Assembly: GCA_964454685.1 (NCBI GenBank)
Contig: CAYVTZ010000010.1
Coordinates: 11,776-75,775 of the forward strand
Reading direction: 5' to 3'
Length of the DNA: 64,000 bases
From: an uncultured Christensenellaceae bacterium
GTDB taxonomy: Bacteria > Bacillota > Clostridia > Christensenellales > Christensenellaceae
Part shown: positions 1 to 24,463 of the stretch, one piece after another
Layout: every line of letters starts with the position of its first letter
Numbering within the stretch: the first letter of the stretch is position 1
Translations under genes and position numbers: made by a program
Notes under the pieces: generated by a model
Seen by the model: only the letters and a program-made list of their open reading frames with translations
Databases searched by the model: none
Told to the model about the DNA's origin: nothing

Positions 1-805
1 TGGCACGCGCAATGCGATATTCGCCCGTCTCCATGTTTTGCAGCACCGCGCCCGCCGCTTTGCCGTCCTCGTCCAAAATCAGCTCCACTGCCGCAGTGAA
101 ATCCACCACGGGAATCTCGCGGTTCCACACCTCATCGCGCAGGACACGCATGATTTCCGCACCGGAATAATCCTTTGCAGCGTGCATCCGCTTGCGTGAG
201 GTACCGCCGCCGTGCGTGGTAACCATCGTGCCATCCGGCGCTTTGTCAAACATTACGCCAAAATCGTTCAGCCACTGAATTGCCGCAGGCCCCTGCGAAA
301 CCAGCTTTTTCAGCAAATCCGGCTTGTTTGCATAGTGTCCGCCACCCAACGCATCCAAATAGTGAATGGCGGGGGAATCATTTGCCTTATCCGCAGCCTG
401 AATGCCACCTTCTGCCATCATGGTGTTCGCGTCGCCCATGCGCAGCTTGGTCACAATCATCACGCTTGCGCCGCCATTGTGTGCTTCGATCGCTGCGGAA
501 GCACCCGCGCCGCCACCGCCGATCACCAGCACATCCACATCGTACGCCACATCCGAAAGGTCCAGATTCACGTCTGAAATGCGGCTGTTTGCCTGCAACA
601 ACGCTGCCAGCTCCACCGGCACTTTATCCCCTTTGTTGGGGCCAATTTTCAAATCTTCAAATCCCACCGTCCGGTAATCCGGGTGAAATTCGCGCAACAG
701 ATTTTCTTTTTCCTCGGCGCTCATGCGTTTTGGCTCCACGCCGATTCTCGCTTGTCTGCTCGCGTCTACCTTCGCAGCGGACGCAAGCATTTCTGGTGTA
801 AACAT
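1..805 (-). CDS. FAD flavoprotein of the fumarate reductase/succinate dehydrogenase type (FrdA/SdhA/TfrA-like). Only the N-terminal part is present; the gene runs off the left edge of the window.
   Basis: Absent from the ORF track because there is no stop in the window. My own minus-strand translation starts at ATG 805..803, with AGGAGG about 5 nt upstream: MFTPEMLASAAKVD...DVDVLVIGGGGAGASAAIEAHNGGASVMIVTKLRMGDANTMMAEGGIQAA. It has a GGGGAG Rossmann motif typical of SdhA/FrdA/NadB/AprA-type flavoproteins. About 75 aa precede the Rossmann motif. It starts 10 nt after the Fe-S subunit gene. Confidence 0.6.
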   Translation of the reverse strand, partial: MFTPEMLASAAKVDASRQARIGVEPKRMSAEEKENLLREFHPDYRTVGFEDLKIGPNKGDKVPVELAALLQANSRISDVNLDLSDVAYDVDVLVIGGGGAGASAAIEAHNGGASVMIVTKLRMGDANTMMAEGGIQAADKANDSPAIHYLDALGGGHYANKPDLLKKLVSQGPAAIQWLNDFGVMFDKAPDGTMVTTHGGGTSRKRMHAAKDYSGAEIMRVLRDEVWNREIPVVDFTAAVELILDEDGKAAGAVLQNMETGEYRIARA

Positions 806-814
806 AGGCCCCTC

Positions 815-1489
815 CTATTTCTCGATTTCTCTGTGGTTGTACAGCTCTTTCAGCTCTTCCAACGGCTTTCCTGCCACATCCTCCAAGAGCTGTGTGAAAT
901 CGCCCTTTTCGATGTCCGCCACACGCAACGCCAAATGCTCGGATTTGGGCGCGAGATATTTTCCCGTCAGCCGACGTGCAAGCAATGCCACCTGCGGATG
1001 CGTAATCTCGGCAGGGCAGCGTGCGCTGCATGCGCCGCACATCACACAGTCAAAAGACATTTCTGCGCAAGTCTCATATTGCGCGCGCTGTGCATGCGCA
1101 ATATACTGCATTACCTTCAAATCCTGCGTACAGGCCTTGGTGCAGGCATTACACCCGATGCACTTGTAGATTTCCGGATAAAGCTGCATCATGATCTGCT
1201 CATCCGCGCGCACCTCTTCCATATCATACAGCGGCTTCACCGTCGGGAAATACGGCAGTGTCGCCACATACATATCGTTTTCCACCGTAGTCTGGCATGC
1301 CAGGCAAAAGCGGATTGTGTTATCACCCTTGATGCGGTATATCGTGGTACACGCGCCACAAAATCCGTTACGGCAGCCACAGCCGCGCACCAGTTTATAT
1401 CCCGCGTATTCCATTGCCCCCATGATGGTGAGGCCTGATGGGACACTATACTGCTTCCCCATCAGAAAAACGTTTACCATTTGTTCCAT
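815..1489 (-). CDS. Iron-sulfur subunit of the FrdB/SdhB type (N-terminal 2Fe-2S plus two Cys-cluster motifs)
   Basis: 224 aa. CRNGFCGAC...CLAC matches the plant-type 2Fe-2S motif of SdhB/FrdB. CIGCNACTKAC and CVMCGACSARCP are ferredoxin-type cluster motifs. It lies immediately upstream of the flavoprotein gene. Confidence 0.6.
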   Translation of the reverse strand: MEQMVNVFLMGKQYSVPSGLTIMGAMEYAGYKLVRGCGCRNGFCGACTTIYRIKGDNTIRFCLACQTTVENDMYVATLPYFPTVKPLYDMEEVRADEQIMMQLYPEIYKCIGCNACTKACTQDLKVMQYIAHAQRAQYETCAEMSFDCVMCGACSARCPAEITHPQVALLARRLTGKYLAPKSEHLALRVADIEKGDFTQLLEDVAGKPLEELKELYNHREIEK

Positions 1490-1579
1490 TGTCTAACTCC
1501 TCTCAATCACAAATGTCCAAAATCTCTCATTCCTGCTCAAGCTGGATCGAAACCGCCGTTGCGTTTTCGGACAGCGTGA

Positions 1580-2413
1580 TTAATATTCATCCGGCAATTC
1601 ATCCAGCTCGTCGCACCGGAATACCGGACCGTCCTTACAAACATACTTGGAACCGATGTTGCAGCGTCCGCATTTGCCAACGCCGCATTTCATACGCAGC
1701 TCCATCGTCGTAAAAATCTGCGTTTTGTCAAAGCCCATCTCCATCAGCGCCGCCAGCGTAAATTTGATCATGACCGGAGGCCCGCAAACCAGCACCGTTT
1801 TATCCGTGGAAAAATTCAGCTTTTTAACGTATGCGGGTACAAACCCCACATGACCGTCCCAGTCCTCCTCGCCGCAGTCAATGGTCAAATGCACCTCGGT
1901 ATTTTCCGCACCCGGCCACACATTCGTAATGTCGTCATAGTCCACCAGATCCGCTTTGGTGCGCGATCCGTAAACGATGTCAACCTTGCCGTATTGCCCG
2001 CGCTTGTCCAACACGTAGTTGATTACGGAGCGCAGCGGCGCAAGTCCGATTCCGCCCGCAATAAACAGCAAATCTTTGCCCACCAGATCGGTTTCCACAG
2101 GGAACGCATTGCCATACGGCCCTCGAATGGTGATCTGCTGACCCACGTCCATTTGGTGCAGCCAATCCGTCAGGCAGCCACACTTTTTGATGCTGAACTC
2201 CATATATTTCGTGTTGGTAGGCGATGAGGTGATGGAAAACATCGCTTCTCCCACGCCGGGGATGGACAACATCGCGCACTGTCCGGGCATATGCTCAAAA
2301 CATTTCCCGCCGGAAAGCGCCTCCGCACGGAATGTCTTAACATCCGGCGTATCCTGTCTGATGTCTGTGATGACCCCCACATCGGGAATCAGCACGTCGT
2401 TTCTATTGCTCAT
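1580..2413 (-). CDS. FAD/NAD(P)H-binding oxidoreductase with a C-terminal 2Fe-2S (FlxA / AsrB / PyrK / sulfhydrogenase-gamma-like)
   Basis: I place the start at MSNRNDV (2413), in an ATGA overlap with the upstream stop. LFIAGGIGLAPL is an NAD-binding motif. The C-terminal CGVGKCGRCNIGSKYVCKDGPVF cluster motif is typical of the PyrK/AsrB family. Confidence 0.65.
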   Translation of the reverse strand: MSNRNDVLIPDVGVITDIRQDTPDVKTFRAEALSGGKCFEHMPGQCAMLSIPGVGEAMFSITSSPTNTKYMEFSIKKCGCLTDWLHQMDVGQQITIRGPYGNAFPVETDLVGKDLLFIAGGIGLAPLRSVINYVLDKRGQYGKVDIVYGSRTKADLVDYDDITNVWPGAENTEVHLTIDCGEEDWDGHVGFVPAYVKKLNFSTDKTVLVCGPPVMIKFTLAALMEMGFDKTQIFTTMELRMKCGVGKCGRCNIGSKYVCKDGPVFRCDELDELPDEY

Positions 2414-3432
2414 TTCGTGTCCCCCAACGTTCTGATTACTTTTGCGATATTCATGGAAATGGGGCATTTTGCAATGCACCGCCCGCATCCCACGCAGGAA
2501 TACATCCCGTCATTGTTGGCAGGGAAATATACCAGCTTGTGCATAAACCGCTGGCGGAACCGCTCCACCTGCGAGGTGCGCGGATTCCCGTGCGCCATGC
2601 GTGTAAAGTCGGAATACATGCAGGAATCCCAACAGCGATAGCGCTGCACATCCTTACCCGAATCAAAGTCCCGAATGTCATAGCATTGGCAGGTCGGGCA
2701 CACAAAGGTACAGGTGCCGCAGCCGATACACGCCTTGGAAAGCTCCGCCCACTTGGGAGAATCGAAAAACTTCTCCGTCGCCGTTCCGTCAAACTCAGTC
2801 AGATCAAGGTTCGAGAGCGGCAGCTTCTGCAAAATCTCTTTGATCTGTGCCTGCTGTGCCTCCACCGCTGCACCGTCCGCGTCCTCCAGCATAGGAAGCG
2901 ATGACAGCAGCAATTCGCCTTTTTCCGTGATTGCCTGCAAATACAGCGCATCCTGCGTCAGCCACGCGCTTACATCTCCTTTGGGCTGCGTCGCATCGAT
3001 CCCAAATGCCGTGCAAAAACAGGTTTCTTCCGGCTGCGCACATGCCAGCGCGATCACCACACCATGTTCGCGGCGCGATGCGTAGTAGCTGTCCACCGGC
3101 TCGCTTAAAAACACGCGATCCAGCACTTCCATCCCCATCACATCACATCCGCGCATCCCGAACACCACAAAGGGTGCGTCCGGCGCATCCGGCGCGCTTA
3201 CTTTGATCTCCTTGCCCTTCATTTCAAAGGACACCAGATCCTCACTCTGCGGAAAGAACAAATCCTTACCCGATTTCACCGTGTTCAGCACGTTTAAATT
3301 CACACGCGCTTCCGGCGTCCAAGCCGCAAAATCCACTTTGCCCTTTTGCGAAATAGGCAGATATAAGGTCTTGTCGCTTGCGATGGCTGCAAACAGCTCA
3401 TTCAAACGATCCCGCGCAATTTGTTTCATCAT
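2410..3432 (-). CDS. 4Fe-4S dicluster protein, FlxB / AsrA / sulfhydrogenase-beta-like
   Basis: I place the start at MMKQIARD (3432), overlapping the upstream stop (caATGAtg) with GGAGG upstream. Motifs are CIGCGTCTFVCPTCQC and CVGCGRCIAKCP. Confidence 0.6.
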   Translation of the reverse strand: MMKQIARDRLNELFAAIASDKTLYLPISQKGKVDFAAWTPEARVNLNVLNTVKSGKDLFFPQSEDLVSFEMKGKEIKVSAPDAPDAPFVVFGMRGCDVMGMEVLDRVFLSEPVDSYYASRREHGVVIALACAQPEETCFCTAFGIDATQPKGDVSAWLTQDALYLQAITEKGELLLSSLPMLEDADGAAVEAQQAQIKEILQKLPLSNLDLTEFDGTATEKFFDSPKWAELSKACIGCGTCTFVCPTCQCYDIRDFDSGKDVQRYRCWDSCMYSDFTRMAHGNPRTSQVERFRQRFMHKLVYFPANNDGMYSCVGCGRCIAKCPISMNIAKVIRTLGDTK

Positions 3433-4406
3433 TGCGCACCTCCTTTGATCTGGCCCGGCTCCGTGTCGCCTTCTGTAAAGCTGACCAGCGGCCACGGCGA
3501 TTCGTCGTCCGAGCCGGCCTGATAATCTCCGTAGTTCTCGTTGATATCCTTGATAAACTTGCGGTTCAAAAGGTGCAGCGGAATCCCCTGCGGACAAACG
3601 CGAGAGCATTCGCCACAGTCTGTGCACCGCCCCGCCACATGAAATGCGCGGATGATGTGGAACATATTTTCTTCAAAGGTGTCCACATTCGCTTTCGCCG
3701 ACACGCCGGAATCGTCGTTGTCAAAGATGCACTTCAGACAGGAGCACGCAGGGCACGCATTGCGGCAGGCATTACATCGAATGCACTTACTCAGCTCCCC
3801 GCGCCAGAACGCAAAGCGCTCGTCCGGCGTCATCGCCTCCAGCTTCTTCACCATTGCAAAGCGATCATGTTTGCGCAGCTCAAAGGGTTGAGTGTCTGCG
3901 ATCGTATCATCACTGACCATGAATTCTTCGCTCTTGCAGCATAAGCAGCGCTCGATCAACACATCTTTCAGCGCGCACTCACGGTCGCCGTACAGTGTTT
4001 CCAGCTTGAGCATACCGTCCACTTCCTGCGCCGAAAGTACGCCTTTAATGCCTTTTGCGGCAAGCTTGCCCATATCCACATTGCCGTGGCTGGGCACACC
4101 CAGCACATAAACCTTTTCCCGGTCAATGCGGTGTTCCTTCACCAGTTGGTTAAAACTGTATGTGTCGCAAGGCTTCAGCAGCGCCAAGATGCGCCCTTCC
4201 TTCTTGCTTTCCTCAATCAAATATTTGCTCAGGTTTGCGCCGCAAAAGCAGTCGTAAACCAAATTGTCCAATGTATCCGCCGTAAACACTGCCGGTGTGG
4301 TATCATAGCAAAACTCTCCGCCCTGCCAGCCCAACACGCGGTTGACTGTGCCGTCCGCAAGCAGTGCGCGCGCTTTTTGAACGATTGCGTCTCTGATTAC
4401 TTGCAT
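3429..4406 (-). CDS. Fe-S protein, FlxC-like (FrhB/FdhB-type N-terminus plus a 4Fe-4S dicluster)
   Basis: 325 aa. Motifs are CIRCNACRNACPACSC and CTDCGECSRVCP. There is a 10-nt overlap with the mvhD stop. Confidence 0.55.
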   Translation of the reverse strand: MQVIRDAIVQKARALLADGTVNRVLGWQGGEFCYDTTPAVFTADTLDNLVYDCFCGANLSKYLIEESKKEGRILALLKPCDTYSFNQLVKEHRIDREKVYVLGVPSHGNVDMGKLAAKGIKGVLSAQEVDGMLKLETLYGDRECALKDVLIERCLCCKSEEFMVSDDTIADTQPFELRKHDRFAMVKKLEAMTPDERFAFWRGELSKCIRCNACRNACPACSCLKCIFDNDDSGVSAKANVDTFEENMFHIIRAFHVAGRCTDCGECSRVCPQGIPLHLLNRKFIKDINENYGDYQAGSDDESPWPLVSFTEGDTEPGQIKGGAQ

Positions 4407-4840
4407 CGCAAATCCTCCAATCTCTTGTTCTCTCCCAGCTCGCTCACCGTCTGCACAAATTCATTCATCACCTGCGCAAACTTCTGACCTTCCGCCGCAG
4501 AAACCCATTCCACACGCATTCTGCCGCGTTCGATGCCCATGTATTCCAGCATGCTTTGCATCAGCGCAAAGCGGCGGCGGGCATAATAGTTACCCGTGGA
4601 ATAATGGCAATCACCCGGATGGCAACCGTTTACAATCACACCATCCGCGCCACGTTGGAATGCGCGTAAAATAAACAGCGGATTCACCCTGCACGAGCAA
4701 GGCACACGGATAATCTTTACGTTCGCGGGATAATCCAATCTGCTCGTCCCGGCAAGGTCGGCGCCCGCATAGCTGCACCAGTTGCAGCAAAAGGAAACGA
4801 TCAGCGGCGTATATCCGCCCTGTTTGGTCAATTCCTGCAT
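4397..4840 (-). CDS. mvhD: MvhD/FlxD-type protein (methyl-viologen-reducing hydrogenase delta subunit family)
   Basis: I place the start at MQELTKQGG (4840), with GGAGGTG 8 nt upstream. SFCCNWCSYAGADLAG...RVPCSCRV...NGCHPGDCHY is the characteristic MvhD Cys pattern. It overlaps the hdrA stop. Confidence 0.8.
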   Translation of the reverse strand: MQELTKQGGYTPLIVSFCCNWCSYAGADLAGTSRLDYPANVKIIRVPCSCRVNPLFILRAFQRGADGVIVNGCHPGDCHYSTGNYYARRRFALMQSMLEYMGIERGRMRVEWVSAAEGQKFAQVMNEFVQTVSELGENKRLEDLRCK

Positions 4841-6825
4841 ATCGCGTCCACCTCCGCCATAATTTGTTTGTTGGTAAAGCCCTTCAAATCCATCGCGCCG
4901 GACGGGCACGTCACCGTGCACGCGCCGCAGCCTTGGCAAACCGCCTCGTTTACCTGCGCCACCCGCCGCACCTCGCGCTTGCCATGGTCGTTGACTTCGG
5001 TTTCAGTATACGTGATCGCGCCGTATGGGCAAACATTCGCACATGCGCTGCAGCCATTGCACAGCAGGCAATCCGATCCCGCCACACACGGGTTGCATTT
5101 GAGTTTGTCTTTGGCAAGCAGACCAATCACTTTTGCCGCCGCCGCGCCCGCCTGCGCCACGGTCTCCGGAATGTCCTTCGGCCCTTGGCAGATGCCGGAC
5201 AGGAACACGCCCGCCGTGGGACTTTCCACCGGACGCAGCTTGGGGTGTGCCTCCGTGAAGAAATCGTTGGTGTCCATGCTCGCCGTGAGCATCGTTGCCA
5301 GCGGCCTTGCCGATGGGTCAGGCTCCACCGCCGTTGCCAGCACCACCAAATCCGCATCAATGTTCATTTGCTTGTTGCTGATGAGATCGGAAGCCTGCAC
5401 ATGCAGCACTCCGTCCTCCTCTGCCACCTTACCCACCATGCCTTTGACATAGTTCACGCCGTATTGCTCCACCGCGCGGCGTTGGAATTCATCAAAGTTC
5501 TTGCCGGGGGTGCGCACATCAATATAGAATACATACACCTGCGTGTCGGGATATTTTTCCCGAATCATCATCGCGTGTTTCGCCGTATACATGCAGCAGA
5601 TCTTAGAACAGTAGGATTTTCCGCAGCCCTCCGATTCACGCGAGCCCACGCACTGCACAAACACAATGGTATGCGGGTGTTCCTTATCCGAAGGCCGCAG
5701 CAACACGCCCTCCGTCGGTCCCGCGGCATTCATCAGGCGCTCCAGCTCCAGTGATGTGATCACATCCGGGCACTGCGCATACTGAAATTCGTCATAATCC
5801 GCAAGATCGATGGTTTGAAATCCTGTCGCCGCAATGATCGCGCCGTATTGTTTGGTCACGATTTCGTCCTCCTGCTCAAAGCGAATCGCCTTGGAGGGAC
5901 AAATCTTCTCACATACACCGCATTTACCCGTTTTATAGTGGGTGCAATGCTCGTGATCGATGACCGGCACATTGGGAATCGCCTGCGCAAAGGGAATGTA
6001 AATCGCACCGCGATTTTTAAGTCCCATATTAAATTCGCTCTTCGCCTTCTTGCTGGGGCATTTCTCCGCACAAACGCCGCAGCCTGTACACGCTTCCTCG
6101 TCCACATTACGCGCCTTTTTGCGAATGTCCACCGTGAAGTTGCCCACAAATCCCGAAATCTTATCCACCTCGGAATAGGTATACAGATTTATTTTTTCAT
6201 GCTGCGCCGCATCCACCATCTTGGGGGTCAGAATGCACGCCGCACAGTCCAGCGTGGGAAATGTCTTGTCCAGTTGCGCCATCTTACCGCCGATGGTCGG
6301 CAGTTTCTCCACAATGTCCACTTCATAGCCCGCATCCGCAATGTCCAGTGCGGTTTGAATGCCGGCAATGCCGCCGCCAATCACAAGCGCGCGCTTCACC
6401 ACAGGGCTCTCACCCGCAGTCAACGGCGCATTCAGGTTCAGCTTGGCAATGGCAGCTTTGGCGAGGATTATCGCCTTTTCCGTGCCTTCCTGCTTGTCCT
6501 TATGAATCCACGAGCACTGCTCACGAATGTTTGCGATTTCCACCATATACGGGTTCAACCCCGCCGCTTGTGCTGTTCTGCGGAAGGTTGCCTCGTGCAT
6601 ACGCGGCGAACACGCACAAACCACGATTCCCGTCAGATTGTGTTCCTTCACCGCCTCGATGATGCGTGATTGGCCCACCTCCGAGCACATATATTGGTAT
6701 TCCATCGCATAGACCACGCCCGGCTCACTCTTCACCGCCTGCGCGACTGCTTCTACATCCACTGTTGCCGCAATATTACTGCCACACCAGCAGACGAAAA
6801 CTCCGATTCTTTGCAAAATAATCAC
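4828..6825 (-). CDS. hdrA: Heterodisulfide reductase subunit A (FAD, multiple 4Fe-4S)
   Basis: 665 aa. The N-terminal Cys domain reads GVFVCWCGSNIA...VVCACSPRMH. The FAD motif is VIGGGIAGIQTALDIA. Inserted ferredoxin motifs are CTGCGVCAEKCP and CGVCEKICP, and C-terminal motifs are CNGCSACANVCP and CQGCGACTVTCP. The ORF-track start at 6825 is GTG, only 2 nt from AAGGAG. The TTG at 6816 has better spacing, so the start is uncertain by 9 nt. Confidence 0.85.
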   Translation of the reverse strand: MIILQRIGVFVCWCGSNIAATVDVEAVAQAVKSEPGVVYAMEYQYMCSEVGQSRIIEAVKEHNLTGIVVCACSPRMHEATFRRTAQAAGLNPYMVEIANIREQCSWIHKDKQEGTEKAIILAKAAIAKLNLNAPLTAGESPVVKRALVIGGGIAGIQTALDIADAGYEVDIVEKLPTIGGKMAQLDKTFPTLDCAACILTPKMVDAAQHEKINLYTYSEVDKISGFVGNFTVDIRKKARNVDEEACTGCGVCAEKCPSKKAKSEFNMGLKNRGAIYIPFAQAIPNVPVIDHEHCTHYKTGKCGVCEKICPSKAIRFEQEDEIVTKQYGAIIAATGFQTIDLADYDEFQYAQCPDVITSLELERLMNAAGPTEGVLLRPSDKEHPHTIVFVQCVGSRESEGCGKSYCSKICCMYTAKHAMMIREKYPDTQVYVFYIDVRTPGKNFDEFQRRAVEQYGVNYVKGMVGKVAEEDGVLHVQASDLISNKQMNIDADLVVLATAVEPDPSARPLATMLTASMDTNDFFTEAHPKLRPVESPTAGVFLSGICQGPKDIPETVAQAGAAAAKVIGLLAKDKLKCNPCVAGSDCLLCNGCSACANVCPYGAITYTETEVNDHGKREVRRVAQVNEAVCQGCGACTVTCPSGAMDLKGFTNKQIMAEVDAICRN

Positions 6826-7007: not shown

Positions 7008-7403
7008 TTATTTCCAATACTTCCGCAATGCGCTGATAATCGCCTGCTGTGGCAATTCGCCGTCTACAAGCGGCGGCACATCCTGTGCGTTCATGTGGTC
7101 TCCGCCTTTTTCACGGATCACCATCAATCGCACTGCCTCAATCAGCTTTGCGGGCTCCACATTACGCGGACAGCGTTCCATACAGGCAAAGCAGGAAAGG
7201 CAACGCCATAGCGATTCCGATTCCATCAGCTCGCGGATGCGCCCGTCCTTCACCATGACCACAAATTGATGCGGATGATATTCCATCTCGTCATATGCAG
7301 GGCAGGTGCCGGAGCATTTTCCGCACACCATACACTTTTTAGGATCTACCCCGCTCACGCGCAATACGGTTTCTTTGAGTTCATTTTGGGAAAGATTGCT
7401 CAC
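7008..7403 (-). CDS. hdrC: Heterodisulfide reductase subunit C (2x 4Fe-4S)
   Basis: 131 aa. Motifs are CMVCGKCSGTCP and CLSCFACMERCP. There is a 4-nt overlap with hdrB. Confidence 0.75.
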   Translation of the reverse strand: MSNLSQNELKETVLRVSGVDPKKCMVCGKCSGTCPAYDEMEYHPHQFVVMVKDGRIRELMESESLWRCLSCFACMERCPRNVEPAKLIEAVRLMVIREKGGDHMNAQDVPPLVDGELPQQAIISALRKYWK

Positions 7404-8200
7404 TTTGCGCCTCCTTCCGCCACGCCCAGCGCTTCTGCCAGCAGCTTCGTGAAGTATACGACTTCCACGCCGCTTTCTGCGCTGTTTTCTTCTAAATTAT
7501 AGCGGCACAGCGGACATGCCGTCACCACCATCTGTGCGCCTTTTTTAGATGCCGAAGCAAGCGCCTGTTTGCACAGACGCGCCGTGTCCTCTTTGTTTTC
7601 CATCACCACATATCCGCCGCAGCATTCATTGCGGTAGGGATAAATGACCGGCTCTCCGCCCAAAGCACGAATGAAATCCTCCATGATTGTGGGGTTCTCC
7701 GGCTTGTCAAACTGCATCTCTTTGCCCGGACGCAGCAGCAGGCAGCCGTAGTATGCGCCGATTTTTTTCCCTGTCAGCGGGTGCACCACGCGCTTTGCAA
7801 TTTCATCGAAGCCTACTTTATCGCGCAGCACTTCAAAATAGTGCAGCACCTGCGTCTCACCGGCATACGGTTGTTCCAACTGTAAATACTGATTGACCTT
7901 GGTGCGCATTTCCTCGTTTTTCTGCATGTCGTTGTTCACGCGCTTGATTACGTGATGGCATGCCGAACACAACGTCACCAGCTCCCCACGCTCCGCGCTC
8001 TGCGCCAGTGTGCGCACCGCCGAAAGCTTGGTTGCATATTCGTCTGTCGCCATGGGATACACCGCGCCGCAACACTGCCATTCTTCCAGCTCGCACAAAT
8101 TCACGCCCAACGCCTGTGCCGCGCTGCGCGCATAAACGTCCAGCTCTTTCGCCTGCGTTTTGAGCGTACAGCCCGGATAATAGTTCAAGTCCATAGACAT
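7400..8200 (-). CDS. hdrB: Heterodisulfide reductase subunit B (two CCG domains)
   Basis: 266 aa. It starts MSMDLNYYPGC. The first CCG motif is EEWQCCGAVYP...CSACHH and the second is NECCGGY...TACPLCRYN. Confidence 0.8.
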   Translation of the reverse strand: MSMDLNYYPGCTLKTQAKELDVYARSAAQALGVNLCELEEWQCCGAVYPMATDEYATKLSAVRTLAQSAERGELVTLCSACHHVIKRVNNDMQKNEEMRTKVNQYLQLEQPYAGETQVLHYFEVLRDKVGFDEIAKRVVHPLTGKKIGAYYGCLLLRPGKEMQFDKPENPTIMEDFIRALGGEPVIYPYRNECCGGYVVMENKEDTARLCKQALASASKKGAQMVVTACPLCRYNLEENSAESGVEVVYFTKLLAEALGVAEGGAK

Positions 8201-8215
8201 ACTCCCTTGTCCTGT

Positions 8216-8246
8216 GCTCCGGCATCAAACAGCTTGATGCCGGAGC
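8216..8246 (-). promoter_or_regulatory. Perfect 13-bp stem-loop between fumC and hdrB, with no U-tract
   Basis: GCTCCGGCATCAA (8216-8228), loop ACAGC, then TTGATGCCGGAGC (8234-8246). It sits 9 nt after the fumC stop and directly before the hdrB RBS. Confidence 0.4.
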
Positions 8247-8254
8247 GCTCTCGT

Positions 8255-9619: not shown

Positions 9620-9632
9620 CGCATTACCTCCC

Positions 9633-15107: not shown

Positions 15108-15265
15108 TCTTTCAAATCCTCCTGCAAACTTTTTTATTTTAAGATCAAACATCTTTGTTTAAAACTTCACAATACTATTATAGGCTCTTTCCCGCGCGAT
15201 TCAAAGTTATGTAAGTAAAAAAACTTGTCAAACTTTTGATTGCAGTAGAAAATTATGTCCGGCGG

Positions 15266-16893: not shown

Positions 16894-17085
16894 GAGGAAG
16901 ATGGTGTTTTCATGAAACCGCAAAAACACATCAGCATTGACGACGCAGTATGATCGTGTTGAAAAGTATGATGCTCGCTCTGCCGGTAGGCAAATCGTGT
17001 TTCTGATTCATCATTGCATCCGAGATTTCGAAGCCCGGCACGACAAGATCGCATTGGAGGAAACCAAACAATCTTAGGAGGAATC

Positions 17086-17634
17086 ATGTCCTACGTGAAC
17101 GAAGTATTAGAGTTCAATCGGGAATTTGTAAAAAACAAGGAGTACGAGCAGTACGCCACCACCAAGTACCCCAACAAAAAAATCGCCGTGCTATCCTGCA
17201 TGGACACACGGCTGACAGAATTATTGCCCGCCGCATTGGGTTTTAAAAACGGTGATATCAAAATCATCAAGAATGCAGGCGGCGTAATTTCCCACCCATT
17301 TGGCAGTGCCATGCGCAGCCTTCTTGTGGCGATTTATGAGCTAAATGTCGAAGAGATTTTCGTGGTCGGGCATTATGATTGCGGAATGCAGTCCTTGCAA
17401 CCGCAACGCATGATCAAAAAGATGAAGCAGCGCGGCATCAGCGAAAAAGAACTGGATATGATCGAATACTGCGGCGTGGACCTTGAGCACTGGTTCAAAG
17501 GTTTTGAAGATCCTGCCGAATCAGTCGCCGCAACCGTAGGCGTGATTGTACATCATCCCCTCATTCCCAAAGATATCAAAGTTGCCGGCTTTGTCATAGA
17601 CCCCTTAACGGGGCAGTTGGATGTGGTAGAATAA
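17086..17634 (+). CDS. Beta-class carbonic anhydrase
   Basis: I place the start at MSYVNE (AGGAGG 5 nt upstream). The zinc ligand pattern is SCMDTRL ... HYDCG. Confidence 0.8.
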   Translation: MSYVNEVLEFNREFVKNKEYEQYATTKYPNKKIAVLSCMDTRLTELLPAALGFKNGDIKIIKNAGGVISHPFGSAMRSLLVAIYELNVEEIFVVGHYDCGMQSLQPQRMIKKMKQRGISEKELDMIEYCGVDLEHWFKGFEDPAESVAATVGVIVHHPLIPKDIKVAGFVIDPLTGQLDVVE

Positions 17635-18376: not shown

Positions 18377-18377
18377 T

Positions 18378-19046
18378 TCACCCAAACACATTCTCCCGAT
18401 ATCGGTACACCGTGCAGGGGCGCCCCCCCGTGCAGTCGTCTTGCGTCTGCTCCAGCTCTCCTATCGCGCTCAAATATGCTAAATAGCGCTGCACCGTGAT
18501 GCGTGAAACGCGCACCTTCTTCACCAGTTCACCACAGGTAAAATGCGTGTCCGGTTCACGCGCCAGCACCGCGCGAATGGTTTCCAAGGTCTTTTGTTGT
18601 AATCCTTTGGGGAGCATCGGCGCATCCACGATTCCTTTTTTGACGCTGTCAGCCATCTCCTGCGTCAAAACCGGTCGATCATAAATCTGCAATCGCCGCA
18701 AAAAGCGTCCAACCGCCTGTTCAAACCGTGTACGATCAAATGGATCGATCAGGCAGTCTGCTACGCCCAAACGCATGGCACAGTTCAGCGTCTCCCGATC
18801 CCCTCGGGCAAGATATGCAATCGCCTCCACCGGCTCTCCTGCCAAACGCAGATCGCGCAACAGGGTCAGCCCGCGTTGCGGCTGATGACGCAAGTCCAGC
18901 AATAGCAAGTCCGCTTGCGCCAGACGACTGATTTCCGCACCTTCCTGCAAAACAGTCTCGAAATAAAATTCGCTGCCGCGGATCATATCCATCATCGGCT
19001 CGCGTGCTTCTCCTTCTCCCGATTTCACCACTGTCATGCGATACAT
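18378..19046 (-). CDS. CitB/DcuR/CitT-family response regulator with a degenerate (pseudo-)receiver domain
   Basis: Hand alignment to B. subtilis CitT. The C-terminal HTH VSRITVQRYLAYLSAIGELEQT...GGRPCTVYRY matches the family. In the receiver, the acidic pair EDD is KSG, the conserved Thr is replaced and the conserved Lys (LIKP) is LIDP. The Asp in LLLLDL is retained. No histidine kinase is present in the window. Confidence 0.7.
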   Translation of the reverse strand: MYRMTVVKSGEGEAREPMMDMIRGSEFYFETVLQEGAEISRLAQADLLLLDLRHQPQRGLTLLRDLRLAGEPVEAIAYLARGDRETLNCAMRLGVADCLIDPFDRTRFEQAVGRFLRRLQIYDRPVLTQEMADSVKKGIVDAPMLPKGLQQKTLETIRAVLAREPDTHFTCGELVKKVRVSRITVQRYLAYLSAIGELEQTQDDCTGGRPCTVYRYRENVFG

Positions 19047-19136
19047 GGATAGCCTCTCCTCTCACGCCAGATTTTCATTCCTACCTGCGATCGTGCGCTC
19101 CGCGCGTACCTTTATTCTACATTCTGCATTTTCTGC

Positions 19137-19436: not shown

Positions 19437-19660
19437 CGCTCTCGGGGCATTCCAGCTCTCTGTCACTCCTCAACGCAGTAGCTTTCAGCCAATCACTTCG
19501 TTCTTGGGAAAGCCTTGCGTGCGTTTTGCCAGCCAATCGCTCCGCTCTTGGGGCATTCCAGTCCTCAATCACTCCTCAACGCAGTAGCTTTCAGCCAATC
19601 ACTTCGTTCTTGGGAAAGCCTTGCGTGCGTTTTGCCAGCCAATCGCTCCGCTCTTGGGGC
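19437..19660. repeat. Tandem direct repeat, 106-bp unit, two full copies plus the start of a third
   Basis: CGCTCT(C/T)GGGGCATTCCAG... begins at 19437, 19543 and 19649, an exact 106-nt period. Each unit contains two related sub-motifs, CAGCCAATC(A/G)CT(T/C)CG(T/C)TCTTGGG. Confidence 0.85.
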
Positions 19661-19695
19661 AAAACGCAAAGAGCCGCACCACGCGGCACGGCTCT
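19655..19695 (-). terminator. Probable intrinsic terminator of the abfD-4hbD operon
   Basis: On the minus strand, the AGAGCCG...CGGCTCT hairpin is followed by TTTGCGTTTTG, starting 14 nt after the 4hbD stop. Confidence 0.5.
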
Positions 19696-19708
19696 CCATG
19701 TTCTAAAA

Positions 19709-20821
19709 TCAATACAGCGATTTGTAAATCCCGTACACCGCGTCTTTGGACAGTTCCACATAGTTATTGCCCATCAGGCGTTGCTGTTTTTCCATCACAT
19801 TCTGTGTGAAGGTGTCCAAATCCTGCTCGGTCACGCCATATTCCCGCAACGGCTTACGCTGGATGATCCGGTTGAGCAGCTTTTCCATCTCCACATACAC
19901 ATCTGCTTCACCGCAGCCCAAAATCTGCGCGATAAAGCGGTTCATCTTCTTGATCTTGCCTTCGGAGTCAATGCTCATGTATGCTTTAAACACACCAATC
20001 AGCAGGCAATAATTCGCCTCGCCGTGCGGCACGTGATACATACCGCCCAGCGGGTAGCTCATTGCATGCACCGCAGCGCAGCCCGCATTGCCAAACGCGA
20101 TTCCCGCATAGTTGCTGGCAATCAGGAAGTCTTTCAACAGCGGAATACGCGCCTCTTCACCGTCCTTCGCAATCACCTTGTAACCTTCCAGAATCATGCG
20201 AATCGCTTCGTAACCGAACAGCTCCGTATATGGTGTCGCCTTCGGGGAAAGCGAGGATTCCAGCGCGTGGATCAGCGCATCGATCGAGCTGGTCGCAAAA
20301 AATTTAAACGGCAGACCCTTCAATAGTTCCGGAATCAGCACGGCGCTGTCCGCATACATCTCGTCAACTGCAAGACCCATTTTTGTATGGCGGCTTTTCA
20401 GCTCTAAAATCGAGATGTTGGTCACTTCACTGCCCGTACCGCACGTCGTAGGTACCAGCACAAGTTCCTTCGCCTTGATGATCTCCGCCTTGCGATCATA
20501 CAGATCCAAAATCGGCGCAACATTTTTCAGCGCAAAAATCTTGGAGATATCAATGATGGTGCCGCCGCCGATTGCGATAATGCGCTTGTAATTGCCCTTC
20601 ATATCGGCATACATCGCCTCCGCCATTTCGTCAGACGGCTCGCCTGCTCCGTATTTTTCCTGATACATCACGTCCGCTTTCAGGTTCATTGTCCCAAAGT
20701 ACGGCTGGTAGATATACTCATTGGTGATGATGAGGTCTCCCTCACCGATTTTGTATTCCTCCGCAAACTCTTTGCAAGTGTCGAAGGAAAAAATGTCCGG
20801 TTTAATGGTCAATGCTTTCAT
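19709..20821 (-). CDS. 4hbD: NAD-dependent 4-hydroxybutyrate dehydrogenase (iron-type alcohol dehydrogenase family)
   Basis: 370 aa. It is collinear with my memory of C. kluyveri 4HbD: GEPSDEM, VPTTCGTGSEVTN, SNYAGIAFGNAG, YHVPHGEANY and RKPLREYG. Confidence 0.85.
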   Translation of the reverse strand: MKALTIKPDIFSFDTCKEFAEEYKIGEGDLIITNEYIYQPYFGTMNLKADVMYQEKYGAGEPSDEMAEAMYADMKGNYKRIIAIGGGTIIDISKIFALKNVAPILDLYDRKAEIIKAKELVLVPTTCGTGSEVTNISILELKSRHTKMGLAVDEMYADSAVLIPELLKGLPFKFFATSSIDALIHALESSLSPKATPYTELFGYEAIRMILEGYKVIAKDGEEARIPLLKDFLIASNYAGIAFGNAGCAAVHAMSYPLGGMYHVPHGEANYCLLIGVFKAYMSIDSEGKIKKMNRFIAQILGCGEADVYVEMEKLLNRIIQRKPLREYGVTEQDLDTFTQNVMEKQQRLMGNNYVELSKDAVYGIYKSLY

Positions 20822-20906
20822 GGTTCAAACTCCTATCTTTCACCGGCGGCACATTGCCGCTTACAAATTGCGTGTCGAAAAACGGCGCATTATTTTTTCG
20901 GTCGCA

Positions 20907-22211
20907 TTACGCATCATAAACGCAATGGAACTTTTTCTCAAAAAACTCAATCAGCTCCGCACGGAAATCGGGGTGCGCAATCGCAATCAAGCGTTTTGCA
21001 CGTTCGCGCAGCGTGATGCCGCGCAAGTCCGCAATGCCGTACTCGGTAATCACATATTGCACATCATAGCGTGTGGTGGTCACTGCCGCGCCTTCGTCGA
21101 TAATCGGCACAATCTTAGAGACCTTGCCCTTTGCCGTGGAGGGCATTGCCATAATGCTGCGCCCGTTTCGGCTCATTGCCGCGCCGCGCACAAAGTCGAC
21201 CTGTCCGCCCACGCCGCTGATCTGGTTGTGTCCCACTGATGTGGAAACCACCTGCCCCATCAAATCCACCTGTACACAGGAATTAATGGACACCAAATTG
21301 TCATTCTGCGCGATGACCAGCGGATCGTTTACATAGTCCACCGGATAAATTCCCACCGCCGGGTTATCGTCTAAGTAATCGTACAAACGCCGCGTGCCCA
21401 TGGCAAAGGTCAATACGCTTTTGCCGGGATGCAGCGTCTTGCATTTGTTGGTAATCACGCCTGCCTCAACCAGCTCTACCACGCCGTCTGAGAACATTTC
21501 GCTGTGGATGCCGAGGTCCTTCTTATCCTTCAAAAACAGCAATACCGCATCCGGAATCGCGCCGATGCCCAGTTGCAGGCAGTCGCCGTCATGGATGAGC
21601 GATGCGCAGTTTTCGCCAATCGCCTTTTCCACATCCGTGATGGTCGGATTAGGCAACTCCAGCATAGGCAGATCGCACTCCACAATCGCGGTCAATTCGC
21701 TGATATGCACGAAAGAATCCCCGTGAATGCGCGGCATATTTTTGTTCACTTGCGCCAGCACGATGTTCGCCTGCTTCACACCTTCCATCGTATAGTCCAC
21801 CGAAACGCCCAAGCTCACATAGCCATGCGCATCCGGCGGCGATACCTGAACCACCGCAACATCCGGTTTGCAGTTGGTGCGCAAACGCTCCGGCTCTTTG
21901 GAAAAATATACCGGCGTGATATCCGCACGCCCTTCCGCGCAAGCTTTGCGGGCGTTTGCCCCCAAAAAGAACGCATTGTGTCTAAAATGTTTTTCCATTC
22001 CGGGTTCGCAATACCCCGCTTTTCCCAGACTAACCATGTGGATGATTTCCACATCTTCATACGCCTGCGCGTTCGCAACCAGCGCGTCTGTCAGCGCAAC
22101 GGGTTCTCCTGCCGCGTGCCCAATCACAATCCGGTCGCCCGGCTTGATGAGCTTCACCGCTTCCTCCGCACTCGTCAGTCGTTGTTGATAGATTTCCTTC
22201 CAATTCGTCAT
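20907..22211 (-). CDS. abfT: 4-hydroxybutyrate CoA-transferase
   Basis: 434 aa acetyl-CoA hydrolase/transferase family protein. Its context between abfD and 4hbD matches that in Clostridium aminobutyricum and Porphyromonas gingivalis. Confidence 0.8.
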   Translation of the reverse strand: MTNWKEIYQQRLTSAEEAVKLIKPGDRIVIGHAAGEPVALTDALVANAQAYEDVEIIHMVSLGKAGYCEPGMEKHFRHNAFFLGANARKACAEGRADITPVYFSKEPERLRTNCKPDVAVVQVSPPDAHGYVSLGVSVDYTMEGVKQANIVLAQVNKNMPRIHGDSFVHISELTAIVECDLPMLELPNPTITDVEKAIGENCASLIHDGDCLQLGIGAIPDAVLLFLKDKKDLGIHSEMFSDGVVELVEAGVITNKCKTLHPGKSVLTFAMGTRRLYDYLDDNPAVGIYPVDYVNDPLVIAQNDNLVSINSCVQVDLMGQVVSTSVGHNQISGVGGQVDFVRGAAMSRNGRSIMAMPSTAKGKVSKIVPIIDEGAAVTTTRYDVQYVITEYGIADLRGITLRERAKRLIAIAHPDFRAELIEFFEKKFHCVYDA

Positions 22212-22480
22212 ATTGCCTCTCCCATCTGTTTGATTTCTTCCAGCAATGTGCTGTATGCCTCGTCATGTGTCAGAATGCTGCGCCCGTGCTTGCCCATTAG
22301 ACCGTCAATCTGCGCGCATGCACTGTTGCAGCCGCACACCACCACCACATAATCAAGTTGGTCGTCTGGCTGCGCCGATACGATCTCGCTGTCCGGAAAA
22401 TCATTCCGCAGACGCTGTGCGATATCCGTTCTGTCAAAGCGCGGGTTGCATCCCCCGCAGTATTTAATCCCGATCTTCAC
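22208..22480 (-). CDS. Small Cys-rich protein (YCGGCNP / VCGCNSAC motifs), function unknown
   Basis: 90 aa. It is translationally coupled on both sides, with a 17-nt overlap with nfu and an ATGA overlap with abfT. Confidence 0.5.
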   Translation of the reverse strand: MKIGIKYCGGCNPRFDRTDIAQRLRNDFPDSEIVSAQPDDQLDYVVVVCGCNSACAQIDGLMGKHGRSILTHDEAYSTLLEEIKQMGEAI

Positions 22481-22769
22481 GCCGTTCCCTTCTCTGCCTC
22501 AAAATCTGTTTCGCCATGCCGATGGTTTCGTCGCTGACGCCCGTTACCAAAATCACATCGGCAATTTCGGGAATCGTGTCTTTCACTTCCGCACTCACGA
22601 TGCCTTCCAGCGTTGCAGAGGCGGAAGGGCAGTTTTGGCACGCGCCCAAAAAGCGTACCTTAAGTACGCCGTCTTCCAAACTGACAATCTCTAAATCGCC
22701 GTCATGCCCCGCCAACGTCGGGCGTACTTTTTCCGCAATCACTCGCTCCACACGCTGCCGTAAATCCAT
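22464..22769 (-). CDS. NifU C-terminal domain (Nfu-like) Fe-S scaffold/carrier protein
   Basis: 101 aa. GHDGDLEIVSLEDGVLKVRFLGACQNCPSASATLEG is the Nfu CxxC motif. A NifU-like gene sits between abfT and abfD in P. gingivalis, from memory. Confidence 0.75.
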   Translation of the reverse strand: MDLRQRVERVIAEKVRPTLAGHDGDLEIVSLEDGVLKVRFLGACQNCPSASATLEGIVSAEVKDTIPEIADVILVTGVSDETIGMAKQILRQRRERREDRD

Positions 22770-22785
22770 GTTCTTGTATCACTCC

Positions 22786-22815
22786 GTTCTTTTCTTTTGG
22801 AAAAAAGAAAAGAAC
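22786..22815 (-). promoter_or_regulatory. Perfect 13-bp A/T-only hairpin just upstream of the nfu RBS
   Basis: GTTCTTTTCTTTT-GGAA-AAAAGAAAAGAAC. Confidence 0.35.
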
Positions 22816-23014
22816 CAAAAGAAAATCAATTTGTCTTACTCTGTTCTACCCATTCTCGCGTCAGCGAAAGGGGCACAACCCCCACAGAACGAACACAGGC
22901 GCGCATCGCGCGCCCTCATTCCTTCTTCGTCGGGGCAACCTGCGGTCGCCCCTTATTTCGCGCAGTTACGCGCGCCCTCATACTTCTTTTTTAATCAAAC
23001 TTCTCAGTTGAATT

Positions 23015-24463
23015 TTATTCCTCAACGTGCGCAATCGTCTTTGCCAGCTTCTTCTTCATTTCCAGATTGCCCTGACGCGCGATCATGATACGCTGTGCCT
23101 GCGGGCTGCCCGCGCCGTGCATGGATTCTGTGCGGTATCCAACCGCCGCCGTACCCAACGCAAGGTTTTCAATCAAGCGCAGAATGCGCAAACGGTTTTC
23201 TGTCGAAACGCTGGAAACGCCCTTGAGGTATTTCTCCACATACTTGCCCAGCTTCGGATCGCGGAAGTCCTTCTCGGAAGGAGCCGTAACCACCACTCCA
23301 CCTGCAATGTCCTCCGCAAGCCGCACGATCTCGTACGGGAAGCGCGTCACGTTCTGTTTGCAAACATTCGCCAGCAAAAGATCGATCATGTAGTTGCCCG
23401 CGGGCATCTGATGCCCCTCAGCCGAGCACGCGATTCCGCATGCGAACAATGTCTCGTTCAGATGTGTCATCTCGATCAGCTTGTCCTTGATGTGCGAAGC
23501 CTTTGCCGCGCCATTGTAGTCCGCCGCAACCGCAGCCGCGCCGATCAGCACATCGCCCACGCCAACTTTGCAGCCGCCATAGCTCTGACGGTGATATCCC
23601 GCAAAGCGCTCCACCAGCATGCCGGCAAACTCGGTCTCGCCATTCAAGAAGATACGGTCATTGGGCACAAACACATCGTCGAAAATGGTCAGTGCTTCTA
23701 CGCCGCCAAACTCCGCGTTTCCTACATCAATATCGCCGCCTTCCAGCTTGCGCGTGTCGCAGGACTGACGCCCGATGATCATAAACAGACCTTCCGCGTC
23801 CAGCGGCACCGCAAAGGAAACCGCATAGTCCTTGTCCTCCGGGCGCATTGCCACTGTGGGCATCACGATGACCTCGTGAGAGTTGAGCATACCCGTCTGA
23901 TGCGCCTTTGCGCCGCGCACCACGATGCCGTCCGGGCGGCGTTCCACCACGCGCAGATAAAGATCAGGATCTTCCTGCTGGTGCGGTGCCAATCCGCGAT
24001 CGCCTTTCGGGTCCGTCATTGCGCCGTCAATGGTCAGGTCATTGTCCTGACAATATTTCATAAACTTCAAGAAATTCTCATGATAGTTCGTACCACAAGC
24101 CTTGTCCGTTTCAAATGTCGTGCTGTAAACCGCATTAAATGCGTCCATACCAACGCAACGCTGGAAGCACGCCGCCGTTTTCTGACCCAGCAAGCGCTGC
24201 ATCTTCACCTTTTTCACAAGGTCGTCCGTGTTGCGGTGAATGTTGGTAAAGCGGTTGATTTTACGGCCATCCTCCAACGTGACGGTCATCAAATCTTCAT
24301 ATTCGGGCATCTGCGCCAAATCATACGTCATGCGCACCGAATTAAGCGACGGTCTCAAAATCGGATCGTCCACCGGATTTTCGATTTTCTCGCCGAACAT
24401 GTAAACCTGCATGTTGATTTTGCGAATACTCTCGATGTACTGTTCCCCTGTCATAAGTGCCAT
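23015..24463 (-). CDS. abfD: 4-hydroxybutyryl-CoA dehydratase / vinylacetyl-CoA delta-isomerase
   Basis: 482 aa. It is near-collinear with my memory of C. aminobutyricum AbfD: MTGEQYIESIRK, KMQRLLGQKTAxCFQRCVGMDAFNA, ERFAGYHRQSYGGCKVGVGDV and SMHGAGSPQAQRIMIARQGN. Confidence 0.9.
   Translation of the reverse strand: MALMTGEQYIESIRKINMQVYMFGEKIENPVDDPILRPSLNSVRMTYDLAQMPEYEDLMTVTLEDGRKINRFTNIHRNTDDLVKKVKMQRLLGQKTAACFQRCVGMDAFNAVYSTTFETDKACGTNYHENFLKFMKYCQDNDLTIDGAMTDPKGDRGLAPHQQEDPDLYLRVVERRPDGIVVRGAKAHQTGMLNSHEVIVMPTVAMRPEDKDYAVSFAVPLDAEGLFMIIGRQSCDTRKLEGGDIDVGNAEFGGVEALTIFDDVFVPNDRIFLNGETEFAGMLVERFAGYHRQSYGGCKVGVGDVLIGAAAVAADYNGAAKASHIKDKLIEMTHLNETLFACGIACSAEGHQMPAGNYMIDLLLANVCKQNVTRFPYEIVRLAEDIAGGVVVTAPSEKDFRDPKLGKYVEKYLKGVSSVSTENRLRILRLIENLALGTAAVGYRTESMHGAGSPQAQRIMIARQGNLEMKKKLAKTIAHVEE

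Follow-up and report, generated by a model that had tools for sequence, protein, structure and literature searches.

A 64,000-nucleotide stretch of DNA from an uncultured Christensenellaceae bacterium (GenBank assembly GCA_964454685.1), which we call the window, carries near its left end a locus with candidate genes for every step from oxaloacetate to butyryl-coenzyme A (CoA). The window spans C10:11776-75775 of a 3.25-Mb genome that is assembled in 107 contigs and is 94% complete. In the labels used here, G denotes a genome (G000 is the genome of the window), L a locus, and C a contig of the window's genome. Window genes were identified by Pfam, NCBIfam and PDB-sequence searches. The resulting profile or structure-sequence matches confirmed in its place every gene named in an earlier sequence-only reading of this DNA, and bore out its claim that each step from oxaloacetate to butyryl-CoA has a candidate. 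The closest SucD loci belong to Christensenella species (80-86% identity), and we therefore regard the genome as representing a sister genus to Christensenella within the Christensenellaceae. The locus is two already described modules placed side by side, a "succinate operon" and a set of succinate/4-hydroxybutyrate-to-butyryl-CoA genes.

Read from right to left, the minus strand carries sucD-bcd-etfB-etfA-mdh-fumC-hdrB-hdrC-hdrA-flxD-flxC-flxB-flxA-frdB-frdA. Divergent from sucD are cat1, a beta-carbonic anhydrase gene and a DUF3796 gene. A third unit, further right, has the order abfD-nifU-90aa-abfT-4hbD and two DcuR/DpiA-like regulator genes on its flanks. Signalling genes to the left of frdA lie on the plus strand, and the minus-strand unit therefore stops at frdA. 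Beyond 25.4 kb, the window holds unrelated genes (a sensory hydrogenase cassette, housekeeping and sugar genes).

The succinate-forming half, which lies entirely on the minus strand, starts with mdh (9633..10580). Its product is an LDH-family protein that scores over the NCBIfam L-lactate dehydrogenase cut-offs, and annotation pipelines will probably call the gene ldh. At the substrate-specificity position, occupied by Gln in lactate dehydrogenases, the protein has Arg, and this Arg is kept in all 13 orthologues adjoining fumC. In the LDH family, the choice between Arg and Gln at this position sets oxaloacetate specificity. Based on the conserved Arg and the linkage to fumC, we interpret mdh as a malate dehydrogenase gene rather than a lactate dehydrogenase gene. 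The following gene, fumC (8255..9640), codes for a class II fumarate hydratase (TIGR00979, 740 bits, over the cut-off).

Next come seven genes of Hdr and Flx type. The hdrB/SdhE-like gene (7400..8200) encodes two complete CCG motifs (Cx31CCx33CxxC and Cx39CCx34CxxC), the hdrC-like gene (7008..7403) two [4Fe-4S] motifs, and the hdrA-like gene (4828..6825) a flavoprotein that is the putative bifurcating flavin adenine dinucleotide (FAD) subunit (NF040770 HdrA2, 789 bits, residues 6-663). They are followed by genes for a FlxD/MvhD-like subunit with an FlpD domain (4397..4939; probable start ATG at 4840), a FlxC-like 4Fe-4S dicluster protein found by domain search (3429..4406), a FlxB-like iron-sulfur subunit with a Fer4_22 match and likeness to ShyB/AsrA (2410..3627; start probably about 3430), and a FlxA-like NAD(P)H-binding FAD/2Fe-2S subunit of the DHOD-B/HydG/AsrB type (1580..2488; start probably about 2410). 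The frdB-like gene (815..1489) codes for an iron-sulfur subunit whose N-terminal part is of 2Fe-2S type and which also has two CxxCxxCxxxC (4Fe-4S) motifs. At the window's left edge, the frdA-like gene (1..805) contributes the N-terminal 268 amino acids of a flavoprotein with an FAD_binding_2 domain; the gene starts at 805 and ends 808 bases past the edge, and in full (L001:10967-12580) it encodes 537 amino acids. The operon and its flanks contain no gene for an FrdC/D-like membrane anchor. The same block, fumC-HdrB/C/A-FlxD/C/B/A-FrdB/FrdA on a single strand, appears in L050, L053, L056, L057 and L061. A gene for a Rex-type redox-sensing repressor follows frdA in one locus of genus g16 (L062:491-1111), and an open reading frame in another (L066:436-1056) matches it in size and position.

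The FrdA-like protein has a conserved 90-amino-acid N-terminal extension, and a domain search did not detect Succ_DH_flav_C, the C-terminal SdhA/FrdA domain, in it. Its best NCBIfam match is TfrA, with the TfrA, NadB and SdhA scores all far under their cut-offs. When it is aligned with Escherichia coli SdhA and FrdA, the catalytic and dicarboxylate-binding His/Arg/His/Arg residues are kept, and the His that binds FAD covalently is replaced by Asn (GDANTMMAEGG). Because the dicarboxylate residues are kept and the covalent-FAD His is absent, the protein fits fumarate reduction better than succinate oxidation. Judged by their motifs, HdrC, HdrB, FrdB and FrdA together resemble a thiol:fumarate reductase that is split into subunits and connected to an NADH-oxidizing Flx module. 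The FrdA-like protein, with its extension, recurs at 65-76% identity in 99 of 399 sampled Clostridia genomes and in 55 of 217 genera. Such conservation across a class is unusually strong for a never-assayed enzyme: no member of the Flx-Hdr-linked fumarate reductase group has been assayed biochemically (PMC7282089).

The other half of the locus contains the full set for the route from succinate to crotonyl-CoA, namely Cat1, SucD, 4HbD, AbfT/Cat2 and AbfD, and also bcd-etfBA. On the minus strand, sucD (13749..15152; probable start 15107) codes for a CoA-acylating succinate-semialdehyde dehydrogenase that scores 617 bits to PDB 8CEI, the solved structure of a succinate-semialdehyde dehydrogenase (acetylating). 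It is followed by bcd (12502..13641), for a short-chain acyl-CoA dehydrogenase, etfB (11703..12485) and etfA (10673..11689), all assigned by profile matches. On the plus strand, cat1 (15387..16850) codes for a succinyl-CoA:acetate CoA-transferase of the ScpC/AarC type (NF053853, 687 bits, cut-off 500). The third unit returns to the minus strand, with abfD (23015..24463) coding for 4-hydroxybutyryl-CoA dehydratase/vinylacetyl-CoA isomerase (804 bits to the Clostridium aminobutyricum structure, PDB 1U8V). Alignment to 1U8V shows that the Cys/His ligands of the [4Fe-4S] cluster are kept (TAACFQRCVG and FAGYHRQSYGGCKVG, with the CxxxC pair and the HRQSYGGC stretch). Genes for a 90-amino-acid Cys-rich protein and a NifU-like protein (22208..22769) come next and are kept between abfD and abfT in relatives. 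Then follow abfT (20907..22211), for a 4-hydroxybutyrate CoA-transferase scoring 556 bits to PDB 3EH7 (the solved Porphyromonas gingivalis enzyme), and 4hbD (19709..20821), for an iron-type alcohol dehydrogenase identified by profile match. We also considered Cat1 as the transferase of a propionate pathway (the ScpC role), which is unlikely given that Christensenella strains form no propionate (PMC11085954).

The physical link between the two halves, which the sequence-only reading had singled out, is real, and joins them in relatives as well as in this genome. It was followed in 56 Christensenellaceae genomes and in an even sample of 399 genomes from the class. In the family set, a close FrdA orthologue is present in 27 of 56 genomes and AbfD in 24 of 56; the two occur together in the window's genus, in 13 of the 14 Christensenella genomes and, outside these two genera, in a single further genome. 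In those examined Christensenella genomes that could be scored, the halves adjoin and the order sucD...bcd-etfBA...mdh-fumC-hdrBCA-flxDCBA-frdBA is kept; G010 retains it though its abfD operon sits 505 kb off. Three metagenome-assembled genomes (L011, L030 and L031) show another fusion, in which cat1-mdh-fumC-hdr-flx form a tight unit with gaps of 22-24 bp, divergent from sucD-regulators-abfD-nifU-abfT-4hbD-bcd-etfBA. The sequence-only reading had named lack of linkage in relatives as a point that would refute it, and this refutation fails: the halves adjoin in scorable Christensenella genomes and stand in another order in these related assemblies. In the class sample, an FrdA orthologue occurs in 99 and a SucD orthologue in 15 of the 399 genomes, and no FrdA-SucD linkage was seen outside the Christensenellaceae. 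Four genomes outside the family hold both, in three cases on different contigs and in one at a distance of 1.4 Mb. The junction is thus real, lineage-specific, and present in two architectures, and no better evidence is available for a flow of product from one half into the other.

Nowhere among the 15 minus-strand genes running from sucD to frdA does a gap exceed 182 bp. No convincing U-tract terminator had been noticed among them, and this agrees with our count of 23 terminator-like sites versus 24.1 expected from shuffled sequence. Neither a promoter-like nor a terminator-like site lies on the coding strand of the 92-bp gap between etfA and mdh. Sequence prediction places promoter-like sites upstream of sucD (15204-15177, minus strand), upstream of abfD (24583-24555, minus strand), and upstream of cat1, and a terminator-like site after 4hbD (19687-19673, minus strand). 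One strong stem-loop, GC-rich and of 15 bp, lies between fumC and hdrB (8214..8248, minus strand), with the hdrB ribosome-binding site directly after it; no U tract follows on the coding strand at this site. The stem-loop may set how much message there is for the genes after it relative to those before it, or it may be an element for messenger RNA stability or processing.

Two joints within the unit vary among relatives. Between sucD and bcd, the window has 107 bp, a Christensenella locus has the sigma-54 gene rpoN (L008:11376-12644, Christensenella sp. Marseille-P2438), and L002, L003, L006, L007, L040, L051 and L058 have a gap of 1.35-1.5 kb. Sigma-54 control of the locus was considered and rejected: -24/-12 motifs are no commoner in the window than chance predicts, and no relevant site carries one. 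Christensenella genomes have a hot spot for insertions at the etfA-mdh joint (L051:5569-8206, L003:7806-10420, L040:15794-19333), which in C. hongkongensis holds genes for an aldehyde dehydrogenase and a zinc alcohol dehydrogenase.

From gene content and context, we think it fairly probable that the locus specifies a reductive fermentation branch in which C4-dicarboxylates are converted, with succinate and 4-hydroxybutyrate as intermediates, to butyryl-CoA and then butyrate. In the proposed route, Mdh would reduce oxaloacetate to malate and FumC would convert malate to fumarate. A soluble FlxABCD-HdrABC-FrdBA complex would oxidize NADH and send electrons along two paths, one through HdrC/HdrB, FrdB and the noncovalent FAD of FrdA to reduce fumarate, and the other probably to ferredoxin; the proposed reaction is 2 NADH + oxidized ferredoxin + fumarate -> 2 NAD+ + reduced ferredoxin + succinate. 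Since the CCG motifs and the FrdB-like part are on different subunits, electron transfer is probably direct from protein to protein and does not go by way of a disulfide. Cat1 would then load CoA onto succinate, SucD and 4HbD would take succinyl-CoA to 4-hydroxybutyrate, and AbfT would activate 4-hydroxybutyrate, most economically from butyryl-CoA and with release of butyrate. AbfD would convert 4-hydroxybutyryl-CoA to crotonyl-CoA, which Bcd-EtfAB would reduce, probably with ferredoxin reduction again.

From standard potentials, we calculate about -68 kJ/mol for electron transfer from NADH to fumarate and about +19 kJ/mol for transfer from NADH to ferredoxin, and the proposed bifurcating reaction is therefore feasible. 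The path from oxaloacetate to butyrate would comprise five two-electron reductions. If both flavin steps bifurcate, 7 NADH would enter and two reduced ferredoxins leave per oxaloacetate, so that the branch would act as a large NADH sink feeding Rnf and/or hydrogenases. Rnf is present in the genome, which fits ferredoxin reoxidation. The C4 acids could come from carboxylation of phosphoenolpyruvate (PEP) or pyruvate, or from uptake of malate, fumarate, aspartate or succinate; candidates for the carboxylation would be PEP carboxykinase (PEPCK) in Christensenella and, in the window's genome, malic enzyme, OadA/OadB or a divergent PEPCK-like protein.

The sequence-only reading had reported no carboxylase in the window, and profile searches of the window agree. 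A search of the whole genome, which it had suggested, gave no canonical PEPCK, but malic enzyme, OadA/OadB and the PEPCK-like protein were found. Canonical ATP-dependent PEPCK was detected by profile search in six of six Christensenella genomes tested, unlinked to the locus. In the window's genome, a search with PROSITE-style motifs gave no PEPCK or PEP carboxylase motif. The PEPCK-like protein (C5:67469-69139) has 556 amino acids, a P-loop (GLSGSGKST), and VLHDDAFVI in place of LIGDDEHGW; paralogues of it adjoin canonical pckA in two Christensenella genomes. At C42:1-5062 (L045), we found genes for an OadA-like 5S carboxyltransferase (truncated where the contig stops), an OadB sodium-pump subunit, a biotin carrier and an MmdA-like 12S carboxyltransferase. 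This cluster could be a two-headed decarboxylase pump or a transcarboxylase-like hybrid, and hence a possible source or drain of oxaloacetate. A PYC_OADA match that might have indicated pyruvate carboxylase is the OadA protein beside OadB, and pyruvate carboxylase was rejected on this basis.

The reported lack of a butyrate-releasing enzyme holds less well. The genome has one acetate kinase gene and encodes no AcetylCoA_hydro-type CoA-transferases other than Cat1 and AbfT, and 4-hydroxybutyrate CoA-transferases accept butyryl-CoA as donor. Release is therefore not really missing, and would most simply be CoA transfer from butyryl-CoA to 4-hydroxybutyrate or succinate. No AtoDA-type CoA-transferase was found in the genome by a motif search, a weak negative because motifs alone were used. 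The genome also contains a second bcd-etfB-etfA set on contig C39 and thl-crt-hbd on contig C8, indicating that the bcd-etf genes of the locus are a dedicated extra copy. In the C39 set (C39:192-2003, which is L048:192-2003, minus strand), etfA is fused to an enoyl-CoA hydratase (crotonase) gene to encode 603 amino acids, downstream of bcd and etfB.

Four Christensenella genomes (G007, G013, G017 and G018) retain the frd and abf genes but have no thiolase and no strong 3HCDH_N (Hbd) match; one of them, G018, is the 99%-complete genome of C. tenuis NSJ-35. All tested Christensenella strains form acetate and butyrate and no propionate, with the highest butyrate in a C. tenuis strain, and butyrate is also formed by some strains in which no butyryl-CoA transferase is annotated, "suggesting unknown pathways" (PMC11085954). 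Butyrate drops once a methanogen removes H2 (PMC7002349), as expected of an electron-sink branch. Rich media could supply aspartate, glutamate and succinate, so this physiology supports the 4-hydroxybutyrate route and not the origin of the C4 skeleton.

More tentatively, we consider it possible that Christensenella and its allies make butyrate from sugar wholly or largely by a C3 + C1 carboxylating route (PEP + CO2 -> oxaloacetate -> succinate -> 4-hydroxybutyrate -> crotonyl-CoA -> butyrate), with two bifurcation steps feeding Rnf. This would apply most clearly to genomes without thiolase and Hbd, such as that of C. tenuis. We calculate that 1.5 glucose -> 2 acetate + 1 butyrate + 1 CO2 is balanced with no H2 formed. 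Activation of succinate would cost one acetyl-CoA, and by our calculation roughly 4 ATP per glucose would result if four ferredoxins pass through Rnf.

Several points weigh against the reductive-branch reading. Each module also occurs alone in other genera of the family: the (mdh)-fumC-hdr-flx-frd block in at least four, and AbfD without a close FrdA orthologue in at least seven, of which the three with loci examined carry 4hbD-abfD-abfT. In Christensenella, the etfA-mdh joint contains either 0.4-0.5 kb of noncoding DNA or 2.6-3.5 kb of unrelated genes, and in two genomes it holds an opposite-strand LysR gene and a split chromate-type transporter. Given these spacers and inserts, cotranscription of the halves is not general, and in Christensenella they are probably separate transcription units. 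The single-operon picture of the sequence-only reading therefore describes the compact 15-gene unit seen here, but not Christensenella, where the joint is spaced or interrupted; the compact unit is special to this genome. In the window's genome, moreover, the ordinary acetyl-CoA route is present, so the locus is not needed for butyrate, and canonical PEPCK was not found in the 94%-complete assembly by profile and motif searches. Ferredoxin reduction by the Flx-Hdr-Frd complex is a proposal only, for all members of the group (PMC7282089). The bcd-etf genes of the locus score under the NCBIfam cut-offs of characterized bifurcating sets, EtfB reaching 374 bits against NF040731 (cut-off 445) and the Acr-type models likewise scoring under theirs. 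The solitary modules and interrupted joints, together with the greater abundance of FrdA than of SucD orthologues (99 versus 15 of 399), would also suit a situation in which the two modules are merely neighbours. The frd half would then make succinate for biosynthesis or as a redox valve, and the sucD/4hbD/abf/bcd half would use external succinate, 4-aminobutyrate or 4-hydroxybutyrate, as happens in Clostridioides difficile, with little or no carbon passing between them. The DcuR/DpiA-like nature of both regulators flanking the abfD unit was counted in favour of the reductive branch, although such regulators could instead sense external C4-dicarboxylates. We judge mere neighbourhood to be rather unlikely: the halves stay adjacent across Christensenella even though genes have inserted at the joint, another arrangement, independent of this one, places cat1 right before mdh-fumC-hdr-flx with 22-24 bp gaps, the 92-bp joint of the window has no promoter-like or terminator-like site on its coding strand, and no AAE-type exporter or dicarboxylate transporter lies in or beside the locus.

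Two other explanations were weighed. The flavoprotein pair at the left end might not be a fumarate reductase but an enzyme like L-aspartate oxidase, or an enoate- or thiol-linked FAD_binding_2 reductase, in which case Hdr-Flx would serve another acceptor and the chain from oxaloacetate to succinate would be broken. The low TfrA, NadB and SdhA scores, the absent C-terminal SdhA/FrdA domain, the unexplained extension and the lack of any assayed member (PMC7282089) speak for this explanation. We nevertheless regard it as improbable, as all four dicarboxylate/catalytic residues match those of E. coli SdhA and FrdA in alignment, the partner is an SdhB/FrdB-like 2Fe-2S/4Fe-4S subunit, and across the family fumC always precedes the pair, usually with the Arg-type mdh as well. 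A homologous operon is also the sole fumarate reductase candidate described in a known succinate producer, where it is induced (PMC7282089). The second possibility is that the locus runs oxidatively, from butyrate, 4-hydroxybutyrate or 4-aminobutyrate to succinate and oxaloacetate, and that Hdr-Flx serves as a confurcating succinate dehydrogenase. All the enzymes except Frd are reversible in principle, and AbfD and 4HbD serve 4-aminobutyrate catabolism in Clostridium aminobutyricum. By our calculation, however, succinate (+33 mV) and ferredoxin (about -450 mV) have a mean of about -210 mV and cannot reduce NAD+ (-320 mV), and FrdA lacks the covalent-FAD His that is normally needed for succinate oxidation. 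On these two grounds, we rejected the oxidative direction, which is very improbable; cultured relatives also make butyrate and do not consume it (PMC7002349, PMC11085954).

The remaining genes near the locus include the beta-carbonic anhydrase gene (17014..17634, plus strand; probable start 17086), whose CxDxR and HxxC zinc motifs are intact. Its position beside cat1 had suggested that it could serve the carboxylation that makes oxaloacetate. This suggestion found no comparative support: about 50 related loci contain no homologue of the carbonic anhydrase gene or of the DUF3796 gene, and with no counterpart there, nothing ties the enzyme to the pathway. It was therefore rejected as a conserved pathway member and is specific to this genome. 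One DcuR/DpiA-like regulator (18378..19046, minus strand) has a weakly matching receiver domain, and the second, a response regulator (24683..25375, minus strand), lies upstream of abfD. The window's genome contains no AAE-type succinate exporter, and no dicarboxylate transporter was found in or beside the locus. In G022, from a genus that has only the succinate operon, a gene for an Asp-Al_Ex (AAE family) permease directly follows frdA (L064:156-1457); as a succinate exporter, this permease would suit a fermentation that ends at succinate.

Both modules resemble systems already described. The butyryl-CoA half has the same enzymes (cat1, sucD, 4hbD, cat2/abfT, abfD, bcd-etf) as the route in Clostridium kluyveri, C. 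aminobutyricum, Clostridioides difficile and P. gingivalis. In those four, the succinate-making genes lie outside the cluster, whereas here they are contiguous with the pathway. The fumarate reductase of P. gingivalis is a membrane-bound quinol type, whereas the one proposed here is soluble and Hdr-linked. The intermediates from oxaloacetate to crotonyl-CoA, and the radical dehydratase AbfD, are also those of the dicarboxylate/4-hydroxybutyrate cycle of Thermoproteales and Desulfurococcales. Unlike the archaeal cycle, the locus is not closed, stops at butyryl-CoA, and does not regenerate two acetyl-CoA; CoA-transferases replace synthetases, the Hdr-linked reductase differs, and no PEP carboxylase motif was found in the genome. 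An autotrophic cycle of this kind was therefore rejected, given the bcd-etf end and the CoA-transferases; the chemistry alone is shared. In P. gingivalis, aspartate and glutamate carbon is reported to pass via succinyl-CoA to crotonyl-CoA (PMC6775972, citing Takahashi et al. 2000). A 2026 genome atlas reports that the succinate-semialdehyde route to butyrate is complete in Christensenella (PMC13106387).

The succinate-forming half most resembles the "succinate operon" of Pseudoclostridium thermosuccinogenes, which consists of genes for fumarate hydratase, seven Flx-Hdr proteins and two fumarate reductase subunits (a 2019 preprint by Koendjbiharie and van Kranenburg, as relayed in PMC7282089). 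The two share the block order fumC, seven hdr/flx, frdB-frdA, and both are proposed to be NADH-dependent, ferredoxin-reducing and soluble. P. thermosuccinogenes, as described there, excretes succinate as an end product, and a putative transporter follows its operon; here, in contrast, sucD-bcd-etfBA and mdh precede the block, there is no exporter, and succinate-consuming genes adjoin. The same seven subunit types make up FlxABCD-HdrABC of Desulfovibrio vulgaris (Ramos et al. 2015, as summarized in PMC7282089 and PMC6315080). Methanogen TfrAB is also similar in that FrdA best matches TfrA, and that HdrC, HdrB and FrdB carry between them the cofactor motifs that TfrB has in one chain. Unlike the D. 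vulgaris and methanogen systems, however, no thiol carrier of the DsrC type or the coenzyme M/coenzyme B type is implied. An association of Flx/Hdr genes with thiol:fumarate reductase genes has been noted in tubeworm symbionts (PMC6315080).

Our literature search found no paper describing the two modules joined, or a Christensenella fumarate reductase. Both modules are of known kinds; the new part is the lineage-specific junction and the C3 + C1 butyrate route that it implies. The placement of a soluble, probably energy-conserving Frd module beside succinate-to-butyrate genes suggests that butyrate can be made from C4 acids, and so from CO2 and a C3 unit, and not just from two acetyl units.

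Christensenellaceae are heritable gut bacteria that have been linked to leanness. Their butyrate pathway has been found inconsistent between strains, and "unknown genes/enzymes/pathways" have been invoked (PMC11085954). If carbon flows through the locus, it would explain butyrate in strains without thiolase or an annotated butyryl-CoA transferase, and it would be a natural way from sugar to butyrate in which CO2 is fixed, not lost. The locus would also offer a physiological setting in which to test an Flx-Hdr-linked fumarate reductase, since the neighbouring genes consume its product. Catalogues of butyrate producers that use thiolase or but/buk markers would then need to include this route, with its entry from C4-dicarboxylates.

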